Part shown: in pieces, positions 47,318-61,696 of the stretch
How the letters are laid out: each line of letters starts with the position of its first letter
How positions within the stretch are numbered: position 1 is the stretch's first letter
Source of the DNA: a virus
Direction: 5' to 3' (one strand)
Virus record (IMG/VR): IMGVR_UViG_3300043772_001024
Location: 47,743-111,742 of that record
Length of the DNA: 64,000 bases
Program-made: the position numbers and the translations under genes
The notes under the pieces: model-generated
Seen by the model: the letters and a program-made list of their open reading frames with translations, nothing else
Database searches by the model: none
Told to the model about the DNA's origin: nothing

Positions 47318-47794
47318 TTATGCAAGAATCAAAAAGTGAATTTTAACTACATTGTTTAGTGCTGCAGCTGAACCATTTGGATTTGATAATACAATTTTAA
47401 ATGAACCTGTTGCAATATCTGAAACACTTGCTACAGGAAACCCTGTTGCAGCCTCATCATATTGTACAGAAACTAAAATTCTTGATCCTGCAACAACATT
47501 AGTGTTGTTTACAGTAAAGAATGTTTTAGCATTTGCAGCTAATGTAGATGACACAGTAGTTACAACACCATTTAATGTGTTTGTAGTTACCGGTGTTGTA
47601 ATACTAGTACCCTGAGTTACAGTGCCTGTATTATATAATGTCTGCAATGGAGCAGCATTTACAGCTAATGGTAGCCACTTATCATCGCGAGATTGGTCTT
47701 GTGCACCTACTGCAATTAGAGTGTTAACATCTGTTGGGATTGTGGTTCTGTAATTACCAGCCTTGATCCAAGAAATAAGATTTAAGATATCCAT
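47318..47794 (-). CDS. Putative structural protein
   Basis: 158 aa; GTVTQ.TS.TT.VT.N...G, FTV.N; late promoter upstream. Confidence 0.6.
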   Translation of the reverse strand: MDILNLISWIKAGNYRTTIPTDVNTLIAVGAQDQSRDDKWLPLAVNAAPLQTLYNTGTVTQGTSITTPVTTNTLNGVVTTVSSTLAANAKTFFTVNNTNVVAGSRILVSVQYDEAATGFPVASVSDIATGSFKIVLSNPNGSAAALNNVVKIHFLILA

Positions 47795-56168: not shown

Positions 56169-56718
56169 AACAAAAATGGCAAGAGTAGCAAAAGCAATGA
56201 AAAAAGATCTAGTTGAAGCAAAAAAAGCTTGTGTAGGCAAAAAGATGGAAGGATTTAAGTTTGCTGATACTAAAAATACTAAGTATGCTAGTTGTATGAA
56301 TGAATACATTGGTAGACTGGGTAAAATTACAGAGTACAATGAGAAAACTGATGAGTTCAAAGTAGAGTTTAAAGATGACTACTGGTTTTATCCAGCTAAG
56401 TTAGGCTTGAAACATATTGTAGAAGAATCTGATGTGGTTATAGAAAATGTAACTGAAGAAGAAATTGATGATGCATATGTAAAAATGCTTAAGGAAGAGA
56501 TAGCAGATTTATCAGCTAGATTAGATGGTGCTTATAAAGAACAGGAAGAAATGCTTGAAGAGTTAAGCTCATGGCTAAAACCATTTCCTAGTGCTTTTAC
56601 AAAGCTTCAGGAACATGCTGGTGTAATTACTCCGGAAGATGTTACTTATCACACAAATCTTATTCTTAAGATTATGGAACATAAGTTTGGTTATAAACCT
56701 AAAATGGTAGAGCTTTAA
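56152..56718 (+). CDS. Hypothetical protein
   Basis: 188 aa (start probably MARVAK). Confidence 0.65.
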   Translation: MACINKTKMARVAKAMKKDLVEAKKACVGKKMEGFKFADTKNTKYASCMNEYIGRLGKITEYNEKTDEFKVEFKDDYWFYPAKLGLKHIVEESDVVIENVTEEEIDDAYVKMLKEEIADLSARLDGAYKEQEEMLEELSSWLKPFPSAFTKLQEHAGVITPEDVTYHTNLILKIMEHKFGYKPKMVEL

Positions 56719-56892
56719 AGAAATGTGTTGTCCCTTGAGAAAGGAATGTTAAGTAGTCTGCCAGATACCAACACAGAGGGCTTCTCATCCTCAAGACACA
56801 TAAACTTCAGTTCCCACACAGTGGTGAGATGGGCTAAGTTATATACAATTTCTCGGAGCTGGAAGTAGAAAGCTGAAGAGTGTGTCTTTTAT

Positions 56893-57002
56893 AGTCCCAT
56901 AGCTCAGTTGGTAGAGCGGAACCTCTGAAAATGTAAAGGATAGCCTGTTAGGGCATGCAATACATCAGGTTCAGGTCACAGGTTTGAATCCTGTTGGGAT
57001 TA
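56893..57002 (+). tRNA. tRNA-like gene (Phe-GAA-like) with a ~35 nt insertion in the anticodon loop
   Basis: Acceptor AGTCCCA/TGGGATT, D-arm GCTC-AGTTGGTA-GAGC, stem GAACCT/AGGTTC, variable loop AGGTC, T-arm ACAGG-TTTGAAT-CCTGT; no encoded CCA. Confidence 0.7.
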
Positions 57003-57086
57003 CTAAAAAATGCTATTGTGGGAGTGACTTACTTCAACCCTCTGACAGCCAGGAAAGACTGGCTTTTTATTGTTTAATTTAAATTT

Positions 57087-57422
57087 ATGATTATGAACTG
57101 GTTAGGAAAAATGTTCAAGAAAAAGAAAAAGAGTTATAATACTGATGGTCAGTATAAACTATTAATTATTGATGATGAGGCAGAATTGCTCCATAAAAAT
57201 TTAGGTATGACTAATGAAAGAGCAGAAATAATATTAAATAAGTGCTTAGAATCATTTGAAAACAGTCAACGTGTGCATGTTGCAATGGAAAAGGTTGTTG
57301 ATATATGTACTCATACTAATGAGATAGTCTTTGCTACTCTTATGATGGCTAAAGTTATTGAGAAGAATGAGTCACATGAAAGGATTTCTAATATGCTCAA
57401 AAACATGTTTGGCCGTGGATAG
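57087..57422 (+). CDS. Hypothetical protein
   Basis: 111 aa. Confidence 0.65.
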   Translation: MIMNWLGKMFKKKKKSYNTDGQYKLLIIDDEAELLHKNLGMTNERAEIILNKCLESFENSQRVHVAMEKVVDICTHTNEIVFATLMMAKVIEKNESHERISNMLKNMFGRG

Positions 57423-60247: not shown

Positions 60248-61696
60248 ATGATTACTATGGAAGATGAGAAAGTAAAAAGAATAGCCAAGCCAAGAGTAAA
60301 TATTGATAATGTTACTTTTGGTGATTTAACTGTAATAAAGTACAATGGTGGTGGTAAACAACTTTGTAGATGTAGCTGTGGAAAAGAAACACAAGTTGCA
60401 ACAGGATTTCTTATAGGAGGTCATAGAAAGAGTTGTGGATGCAAGAGATATGTAAGAAAACAAGCAGAAAACTGTCGTCACTGTGGAGCTACTATTTGTG
60501 ATAGGAATGAATTCAAATCTAGAACCTATAGTAATGGTAAGAAAGGTAAATGTAGTACATGCAAGTATTGTAAGAGCAAAGCCTCTTTTTGTTTATATTC
60601 ATATGAAGATCCTGAACTTGAAAAGCTAAGTGTGAAGAGAAATGGTTATATTCATAATAGAGTTGGGTGGGCTAAAAATGGAGAGATTTATAAGCAGAGG
60701 GATTATGAACGTAAGAGAGAATCAACTGCTAATTTAGATGATAACTATATTATGAAAAAGCTTGTTAGTGAGGGTTGGTCCAGAGATGATGTTACTCAAG
60801 AAATTATAGAGTCAAGGAGAAAAGCTCTTAAAGATTATAGAGAGAGAACAGGACTTTCATGCAAGGAAGACTATTTTAGATATGAGTATAAAGGAGTAAA
60901 GTACAGAAAAAAAGATTATTGTGAAATAATTGCAAAAGAGTACGGTCTTACTCCTATTACAGTGCATGGCAGACTTAAAGCTGGCTGGTCTTTTGATGAT
61001 ATAGTTAATACACCCATGTATTGTCTCTCTGAAACTTCAAGAAAGGAATATGTTGAAAAGATGGGTGCTCAGGTTAAAGTCTATGATCTTGATAACAATT
61101 TGCTTTATGAATTTAATACCTATGGTGAGACTGCAAAGTTTTTAAATACTTCACAAAGTAATGTAGTGAATACTTGTACAAGATCTGGAATATTTCAGGA
61201 TAAATACAAGATAAGGTCTAAGATAAGCTCTCCAGAGAAAAAAGCTTTATTGAACAAGAAAACAAAAGCTAAAAATGAAAACTGGTGTAGGATAACTTAT
61301 GCAACTCCTGAGTTAAATGAATTAGCATCTAAAAGATGTCATGAAATAAACTATAAGCTTTATTATGCTAACAATAGAGAGATTATTTATCAAAGAGTCA
61401 AAGATTATTGTAATAGAACTTTTGATGTAAAGGGAGTAAATAACAAAGAAGGTTATAGTACTAACAGGGAATACAAAAAAGCTAAACACCGAGATTGGGT
61501 AAATAACAATAAAGAATTGTTAATGGCTTATCATGTAGCTTATAGAAGAAATATTGTTGACAATTTAAATGATGCATATATCAAGGGCTGTTTAATGAGA
61601 ACTGTGGGTTTAAAAGCTAGTGATATTACTCCTGAAATGATTGAGATGAAAAGAAAACAATTGGTTATGTATAGGGAATTAAAACATTTAAAATGA
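60248..61696 (+). CDS. Mosaic DNA-binding protein built from homing-endonuclease-associated modules
   Basis: FGDLTVI..CRCSCG..KSCGC, CxxC pairs, HTH-like IAKEYGL...TV.GRL..GW, NUMOD1-like VKVYDLDNNLLYEFNT..E.AKFL. Confidence 0.6.
   Translation: MITMEDEKVKRIAKPRVNIDNVTFGDLTVIKYNGGGKQLCRCSCGKETQVATGFLIGGHRKSCGCKRYVRKQAENCRHCGATICDRNEFKSRTYSNGKKGKCSTCKYCKSKASFCLYSYEDPELEKLSVKRNGYIHNRVGWAKNGEIYKQRDYERKRESTANLDDNYIMKKLVSEGWSRDDVTQEIIESRRKALKDYRERTGLSCKEDYFRYEYKGVKYRKKDYCEIIAKEYGLTPITVHGRLKAGWSFDDIVNTPMYCLSETSRKEYVEKMGAQVKVYDLDNNLLYEFNTYGETAKFLNTSQSNVVNTCTRSGIFQDKYKIRSKISSPEKKALLNKKTKAKNENWCRITYATPELNELASKRCHEINYKLYYANNREIIYQRVKDYCNRTFDVKGVNNKEGYSTNREYKKAKHRDWVNNNKELLMAYHVAYRRNIVDNLNDAYIKGCLMRTVGLKASDITPEMIEMKRKQLVMYRELKHLK

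Follow-up and report, generated by a model that had tools for sequence, protein, structure and literature searches.

INTRODUCTION

Early work on T4 and T5 already revealed that phages encode stable tRNA-like RNAs. T5 RNA1 and RNA2 (AY543070: 30501-30644 and 32959-33083) are annotated as 'tRNA-like stable RNA with unknown functions', and T4 rnaC and rnaD, species 1 and 2 (AF158101: 70908-71046 and 71053-71171), are annotated as 'small, stable RNA'. These are the nearest named RNAs to the one described in this work; like it they are small RNAs, and they are encoded among phage tRNA genes. A tRNA frame has reportedly also been engineered by Ponchon and Dardel as a 'tRNA scaffold' for recombinant RNA expression.

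The RNA gene of the present study lies in a 64,000-nt stretch of DNA (bases 47743-111742 of IMG/VR record IMGVR_UViG_3300043772_001024), which is called the window throughout. The source virus record, from an environmental (lake) phage, is 111.7 kb long and estimated to be 94% complete. The genome has 33% G+C, giant ORFs of 2046-3264 aa and, under the standard code, a coding density of 95%, so that there is no recoding. Amber-suppressor relatives were considered and rejected, the 'Pyl(cta)' reported by ARAGORN in L009 being really a tRNA-Arg(UCU). There are PHROG matches for the portal, large terminase and capsid proteins, and the terminase shares 23-27% identity with its counterparts in crAss-like Bacteroides phages and in Flavobacterium phages. 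Based on these matches and identities, the virus is a distant environmental crAss-like phage, with a host that is probably a member of the Bacteroidota.

RESULTS

A complete tRNA frame with an enlarged anticodon arm

The gene (Table 1) matches the Rfam tRNA model (RF00005) with 51.6 bits, the gathering score being 29, and the alignment covers the model from position 1 to 71 and places 43 additional bases in the anticodon loop. Without introns, ARAGORN reported no tRNA anywhere in the 64-kb window; with introns allowed, as the first-pass annotation of this locus had proposed, it detected the gene as tRNA-Phe(GAA) with a 35-nt 'intron' ATGTA...TACAT. The acceptor, D and T arms, the T-loop TTTGAAT and the absence of an encoded CCA are as that annotation had described them and can be read directly from the sequence. 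The D arm is of class I (TAGCTCAGTTGGTAGAGC), and the variable loop has 5 nt (AGGTC). Tertiary partners are present at U8/A14, G15/C48, G18/U55, U54/A58 and G26/A44, and the elbow and core pairs of an L-shaped fold (G18-U55, 19-56, U8-A14, R15-Y48 and U54-A58) are all readable.

Table 1. Features of the RNA gene and its surroundings, in window coordinates
Feature	Position	Strand	Remarks
Leader module A	56725..56793	+	Own model R2 scores 63.4 bits
Leader module B, long hairpin	56794..56888	+	From fold; ends 4 nt before the 5′ end of the RNA
tRNA-frame RNA gene	56893..57002	+	110 nt including discriminator A; CCA not encoded
Acceptor stem, 5′ strand AGTCCCA	56893..56899	+	Pairs with TGGGATT, 56995-57001
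D arm GCTC-AGTTGGTA-GAGC, class I type	56902..56917	+	G19 at 56911
Anticodon stem, 5′ strand GAACC (27-31)	56919..56923	+	Pairs with GGTTC, 56968-56972; Rfam alignment
44 nt replacing the 7-nt anticodon loop	56924..56967	+	U32-A38 pair closes a 42-nt bulged rod
Apical hexaloop UGUUAG of the insert	56946..56951	+	Sole variable part of the insert
T arm ACAGG-TTTGAAT-CCTGT	56978..56994	+	Direct reading of the sequence
Conserved 3′ trailer, 44 nt	57003..57046	+	Near-identical in seven variants
Intrinsic terminator AGCCAG-GAAAGA-CTGGCT plus T run	57047..57072	+	Terminator scan
111-aa gene	57087..57422	+	Linked to the RNA in 8/9 variants; not in L156

A functional decoder has a 7-nt anticodon loop with U33 and a purine at position 37 on a 5-bp stem. 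In our RNA, 44 nt separate the strands of the 5-bp stem and position 33 is C. The register of this stem was set by alignment to intact tRNA-Arg(UCU) relatives, which gives GAACC/GGTTC. The 44-nt insert starts with U-C-U-G-A-A-A-A and ends with A, and its first U and last A pair to extend the stem to 6 bp. Because this U32-A38 pair lengthens the stem, CTGAAAA is placed one base out of register, with C at position 33, and a canonical-looking Phe loop arises only if the anticodon stem is counted as 6 bp. The earlier reading of a 6-bp stem GAACCT/AGGTTC followed by the loop CT-GAA-AA thus needs adjustment: its T-A pair exists and the loop sequence is there, but the canonical stem has 5 bp, the T-A pair is 32-38, and the loop is shifted by one base relative to intact tRNAs.

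RNAfold predicts a cloverleaf with a rod-like extension of the anticodon arm (-34.3 kcal/mol for the RNA; z = -2.4 versus shuffles). The UGUA/UACA and GCC/GGC helices of this extension agree with the foldable insert seen at first pass. From its base, the predicted 42-nt rod consists of a CU bulge, GA/UC, an AAA bulge, UGUA/UACA and an AA/AA loop, followed by G-C, G/G, AU/AU, an A bulge and GCC/GGC. Kink-turn and loop-E readings of the internal loops were inspected by eye and do not fit the consensus.

Conservation of frame and insert

The window copy and eight more copies, found in viral and metagenome contigs by protein-anchored and pattern searches, form a set of nine variants. Identity of the window RNA to the other copies is 94-99%, against about 79-86% at the DNA level for the homologous flanking protein genes, and the RNA is under purifying selection. 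In L156 the acceptor stem reads AGTCATG/CATGACT in place of AGTCCCA/TGGGACT, three pairs being altered on both sides, a degree of compensation equalled by 1 of 500 shuffles. The partner of acceptor base G2 is U71 or C71, depending on the copy.

The universal elbow pair of tRNAs is G19-C56. The T-loop TTTGAAT has U56 where C56 is usual, and position 19 is A in seven of the nine variants, which gives an A-U elbow pair, while the window copy has G19-U56. A19 with U56 is also found in the tRNA-Arg genes L135, L146 and L150, and G19 with C56 in L136, L139, L145 and L148, so the 19-56 pair covaries between A-U, G-C and G-U across copies and relatives. The compensatory acceptor pairs and the covariation at 19-56 show that selection acts on the tRNA frame at the RNA level.

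Conservation of the insert equals or exceeds that of the frame. All 38 positions outside the apical hexaloop are invariant across the nine variants, and the hexaloop itself occurs as UGUUAG, UGCCAA, UACCAU and UGUUAU. Covariation of the insert in homologues had been put forward as a check; the homologues do conserve the insert, but its helices never vary, hence covariation neither supports nor contradicts them, and the fold drawn for the insert is a prediction from energy alone (z = -2.4).

These data also bear on whether the gene could be a decaying tRNA pseudogene, an option raised in the first-pass annotation, or an element acting at the DNA level, for example an integration site. A non-canonical anticodon loop and the lack of an encoded CCA are features that such an origin would allow. 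The reading is nevertheless contradicted by the conservation of the RNA, which far exceeds that of the flanking genes, and by the compensatory changes that keep its pairing. Moreover, no integrase was found in the phage genome, and the inserted-frame pattern had no match in the genomes of 185,579 prokaryote species (one genome each). We give a pseudogene or att site next to no credence.

Relatives with other middles

Contigs that share the T arm and acceptor stem carry ordinary 74-nt tRNA-Arg(UCU) genes, and one has a CAU tRNA. The phage tRNA-Arg(UCU) genes (for example L150, L145, L139, L136, L135 and L148) have the acceptor AGTCCCA/TGGGACT, the same or nearly the same as in our RNA, and resemble it further in the D stem, position 26, the variable loop AGGTC, the T arm and the discriminator. 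The unusual T-loop TTTGAAT with A19 is common to most variants of our RNA and to the tRNA-Arg genes L135, L146 and L150. In contrast, the tRNA-Arg genes decode AGA through a normal loop of 7 nt, CUUCUAA, where our RNA has 44 nt; the anticodon stem, of 5 bp in both, is a different one, and position 20 is A20 in tRNA-Arg and U20 in our RNA.

A metagenome contig, L152, has the frame of our RNA, including TTTGAAT, together with a leader (module B, see below) as in L157. Its middle is an unrelated 38-nt loop (UUUGGUA...) on a covarying stem GCTTC/GAAGA plus a U-A pair; there is no canonical anticodon loop, and position 37 is U. The insert is thus swappable within the frame. A third kind of middle is found in L137 and L141, in a frame that starts with GGTCCCA. 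Between GGTCCCA and TGGGACT, these two contain the interleaved segments GAGGC/GCCTC and CCCTC/GAGGG, which could form a pseudoknot. We also noted a phage tRNA-like gene at L020:8011-8090 (-) with a normal frame and a 12-nt anticodon loop, TAACCATAAGAA.

The insert considered as an intron

The ARAGORN call raises the question of whether the gene encodes a true intron-containing tRNA-Phe(GAA), from which 35-37 nt would be removed by a bacterial or phage pathway, for example by a nuclease that cuts at the bulges followed by ligation by host RtcB, to give a product decoding UUY. The 35-nt intron called by ARAGORN lies next to 37/38, the canonical site, the invariant CUGAAAA is a textbook Phe anticodon loop, and RtcB is present in a Bacteroides control genome. 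If splicing did occur, this short intron would belong to no type known in bacteria and their viruses, being distinct from both group I and bulge-helix-bulge introns, and would leave a phage tRNA-Phe whose anticodon stem has an unusual 6 bp.

A bulge-helix-bulge motif consists of two 3-nt bulges on opposite strands, 4 bp apart. In the predicted fold of our RNA, the CU and AAA bulges are both on the 5′ strand and the 3′ junction is located in the continuous helix UACAUC-AGGUUC; hence, there is no bulge-helix-bulge. An archaeal virus with such an intron was rejected as a candidate for the same lack of the motif and since terminase, portal and capsid are of the type of crAss-like Bacteroidota phages. 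Group I introns comprise roughly 200 nt or more and a P1-P9 core. The insert, of 35-44 nt by either count and with no Rfam intron match, is indeed too short for one, as had been stated at first pass, and no group I intron, self-cleaving ribozyme or any Rfam family other than tRNA was found at E<=1 in 56600-57300.

The first-pass annotation had further named a phage splicing or repair activity as a possible user of the RNA, and a search for RtcB or an RNA ligase as the way to check it. A search with three profiles came back empty: PF01974, PF01139 and PF09414 are all absent from the 94%-complete phage genome, which thus has no RtcB, tRNA-splicing endonuclease (EndA) or Rnl2-type ligase, and the endonuclease profile matched only archaeal controls. 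Moreover, a single excision would yield either a 6-bp stem or C33, never a 5-bp stem with a U33 loop, and the swapped loop of L152 has U at position 37. No insert-free or differently inserted copy was found in IMG/VR by exact pattern, nor in the set of one genome for each prokaryote species. On the fetched loci, ARAGORN called 123 inserted phage RNAs intron-containing tRNAs with arbitrary anticodons, including stops, so its Phe call here carries little weight. We regard splicing as very unlikely.

A family of phage tRNA-Leu shells

A degenerate pattern of the T arm and acceptor stem matched more than 120 viral contigs. The resulting tRNA-Leu shell family has the general form AGTCAGG-TGGCGGAATTGGTAGACGC-(about 25-140 nt, hypervariable)-ACAGGTTCGAATCCTGT-CCTGACT-AC and includes at least 148 distinct RNAs, often several per contig, all of them phage-borne. 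Like our RNA, the shells combine a tRNA frame with a middle that is oversized and does not decode. Both have the first four acceptor pairs in common, the T arm of our RNA equals the shell T arm except at base 56, and the two leader modules described below precede shells as well as our RNA. The shells differ in their Leu-type (class II) D arm and in the acceptor AGTCAGG/CCTGACT, where our RNA has a class I D arm and AGTCCCA/TGGGATT; due to these differences in acceptor and D arm, our RNA is not a strict member of the family. Shells usually have no recognisable anticodon stem, their middles are hypervariable and they often occur in multiple copies per phage, whereas our RNA, present as a single copy, has retained both the anticodon stem and a variable loop of 5 nt, and its insert hardly varies.

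The motif AAATGTA, seen in our insert and in shell middles, was rejected as a common element, because just 6 of the 148 members have it and none of the k-mers shows strong enrichment. Full-text literature searches returned no paper that describes either our RNA or the shells, and the families treated in a 2026 preprint on bacterial tRNA mimics are different ones.

Two smaller sets of RNAs were noted alongside the shells. In L135 and L146 (just upstream of tRNA-Arg) and in L208, a mini-hairpin of the shell acceptor stem alone is found, AGTCAGG followed by 13 to 16 nt and CCTGACTA; these mini-hairpins adjoin a tRNA or leader module A. In L009 (4566-4682) and L108, an RNA with the AGTCAGG frame combines a D arm of class I (TAGCTCAGTGGTTAAGAGC) with a conserved middle of 61 nt; this RNA adjoins a normal tRNA-Arg(UCU) and lies downstream of a distant homologue of the 188-aa gene of the window.

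Leader modules, trailer and terminator

The RNA gene is located in a 368-bp intergenic region (56719-57086) that can be read as one non-coding RNA unit. Upstream, module A reads GUGUUG-(UCCCUU-GAGA-AAGGAA)-variable-CAACAC-A-GAGGG-CUUCUCA-UCCUC-A, in which GUGUUG/CAACAC encloses the UCCCUU-GAGA-AAGGAA hairpin and a variable hairpin, followed by GAGGG-CUUCUCA-UCCUC. The GAGA loop is complementary to the UCUC of the other loop, and hence a kissing contact is possible. Module A has no Rfam match, but a search with its 3′ half alone hits more than 120 viral contigs. Of 99 distinct copies of the module, 49 count under strict criteria as preceding a tRNA or tRNA shell, at a distance of 3-13 nt (mostly 3-5), and many of the others also lie upstream of such RNAs, often via module B.

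Several further observations concern module A. Over loci L164-L279 it is a very widespread phage RNA-like element with constant ends, GTGTTGTTCCCTTGAGAAAGGAA ... CAACACAGAGGACTTCTCATCCTCA, and a hypervariable middle. The window has a second, weak match to its R2 model at 47502-47574 (+) (16.6 bits, E 0.13), with GUGUUGUU...ACAACAC ends and without the terminal hairpin, which may be due to chance. The GGUUCCCUGAGUAAGGAAUU hairpin of module A is shared by T4 rnaD.

Compared with L153, module B shows by inspection the compensatory changes CUUCAG/CUGAAG versus CCUAAG/CUUAGG and ACACA/UGUGU versus ACACG/CGUGU. It is also found upstream of AGTCAGG shell RNAs in L031, L165, L171, L178 and L193. Its apical stretch GAYGGGCTAAGTWAGATACAATTCC is conserved, and a promoter or a processing site could reside in module B.

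Downstream of the RNA, the stem of the terminator, at 57047-57064, covaries (GCCAGG/CTGGC, GCCGGG/CCGGC and GCTTGG/CAAGC). Trailer and terminator are precisely missing in L130/L132 and L157, and are thus dispensable. A pairing of leader and trailer through TCCCACA and TGTGGGA was rejected, as it shows no covariation in L153. The 111-aa protein encoded next has no Pfam, PHROG or ESM Atlas match.

The position of the leaders suggests another role for the tRNA shape, namely a processing handle, which would recruit RNase P or RNase Z to free modules A and B as the real effectors and leave the insert with secondary importance. In most classifiable copies, a tRNA or tRNA shell follows module A after 3-5 nt, and module B approaches our RNA to a similarly short distance (Table 1), as expected for such a handle. 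However, L151, L154 and L130 keep the RNA with its insert in the absence of modules A and B, and the strict invariance of the insert would be left unexplained. We consider this role quite unlikely.

An accessory cassette

The RNA gene is the sole tRNA-type gene of its phage genome. Three complete relatives, about 120 kb long, likewise encode no other tRNA-type gene than this RNA, and a fourth complete relative lacks such genes altogether; this speaks against an ordinary decoder. In L006, the up- and downstream genes are separated by just a terminator, and at the point corresponding to this empty site L153 has leader, RNA, trailer and terminator inserted. The RNA unit thus behaves as an accessory cassette, present in some phages and absent from others. 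A normal tRNA in relatives was the outcome that the first-pass annotation had named as contrary to its proposal; the site holds either the insert-bearing gene or no gene.

A metagenome scan gave five copies. The covariance model R1, built on our RNA, recovers all tRNAs by deleting the insert, and is therefore useless for finding homologues of the insert. No antisense target of at least 12 nt was found in the phage genome, which leaves a base-pairing role unsupported. Among small early genes 3.2 kb downstream of the RNA, the window encodes at 60248-61696 (+) a 482-aa HNH endonuclease with a NUMOD1 domain, likely a free-standing homing endonuclease.

Presence in some close relatives and not in others is typical of counter-defence genes, and brings in a tRNA-mimic decoy, whose Phe-like stem-loop would sequester a host anticodon nuclease, or some other defence or modification enzyme that is directed at tRNAs, and thereby protect the host tRNA during infection. 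In the predicted fold, most of the invariant CUGAAAA on the arm's 5′ side is unpaired, and the tRNA body needed for recognition is intact. Against this, the equivalent RNA of L152 has another loop (UUUGGUA...) and no canonical anticodon loop, and no link to defence was found in the gene neighbourhood. We know of no Phe-specific anticodon nuclease. A decoy is thus an unlikely, more specific version of the explanation preferred below.

DISCUSSION

We favour, with somewhat better than even confidence, the explanation that the gene encodes a functional non-decoding tRNA-frame RNA, in which the frame would provide processing and stability and the conserved arm would be the working part. The product most likely belongs to a widespread kind of small phage RNAs that are tRNA-shaped and do not decode, rather than being a tRNA from which an intron is spliced. 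The first-pass proposal of a tRNA-scaffolded RNA rather than an ordinary tRNA is borne out by the selection on the frame, the conserved insert, the swap in L152 and the leaders shared with shells. Both the decoy and the processing handle are variants of this non-decoding tRNA-frame reading.

Under the favoured explanation, the RNA would descend from a phage tRNA-Arg(UCU) lineage, from which it would have kept the complete frame of acceptor, D arm, 5-bp anticodon stem, 5-nt variable loop, T arm and elbow contacts, while the 7-nt anticodon loop would have been swapped for the conserved 44-nt bulged rod. The gene would be transcribed together with the two structured leader modules, and its transcript would end at its own terminator. 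Host RNase P and the 3′-end and CCA enzymes could then release and protect a stable RNA of ~110 nt by way of the frame. The enlarged anticodon arm, with its invariant internal loops and bulges, is the candidate working part and probably serves as a binding surface; it would most likely bind a protein, of the host or the phage, that normally deals with the anticodon arms of tRNAs, or act as a decoy. Against this explanation stands the following: CUGAAAA following a 6-bp stem makes a perfect and invariant tRNA-Phe anticodon loop, which a pure cargo model does not need.

As metagenomes show, phages very commonly carry tRNA frames whose middles do not decode. The RNA described here is a clean experimental case, as it is single-copy, the only tRNA-type gene of its phage and fully canonical in its frame, with a short insert that hardly varies and is simple to mutate. 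Nature also provides a variant whose frame is the same but whose insert is another, and relatives in which the site is empty. A binder of the enlarged anticodon arm, once found, could show what the whole class is for, and whether the tRNA shape is a general phage chassis for small RNAs. For annotation, intron-aware tRNA finders label such genes as intron-containing tRNAs with arbitrary anticodons, and default settings miss them.

The engineered tRNA scaffold is a laboratory design in which, reportedly, the anticodon arm is replaced or extended by an RNA of interest and tRNA enzymes process and stabilise the chimera; its likeness to our RNA is functional only. The T4 and T5 RNAs have no detectable sequence homology to our RNA, and their stability is experimental knowledge, whereas our RNA is known here from its sequence. 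In T5 RNA1, a Leu-type D arm and a T arm flank about 80 nt of other sequence. T5 RNA1 and RNA2 both fail a threshold of E 0.01 with the Rfam tRNA model, to which our RNA aligns well above the gathering score. In T4, rnaD (species 2) lies directly upstream of rnaC (species 1), beside tRNA-Arg, and the R2 model of module A has a weak match inside rnaD (L280:767-837 (-), 17 bits, E 0.11 over 69 kb). As a comparison that is suggestive only, T4 rnaD plus rnaC may correspond, in a model phage, to 'module A plus tRNA shell', the order of module A and then a tRNA-like RNA being the same in T4 (rnaD, rnaC) and at the present locus.
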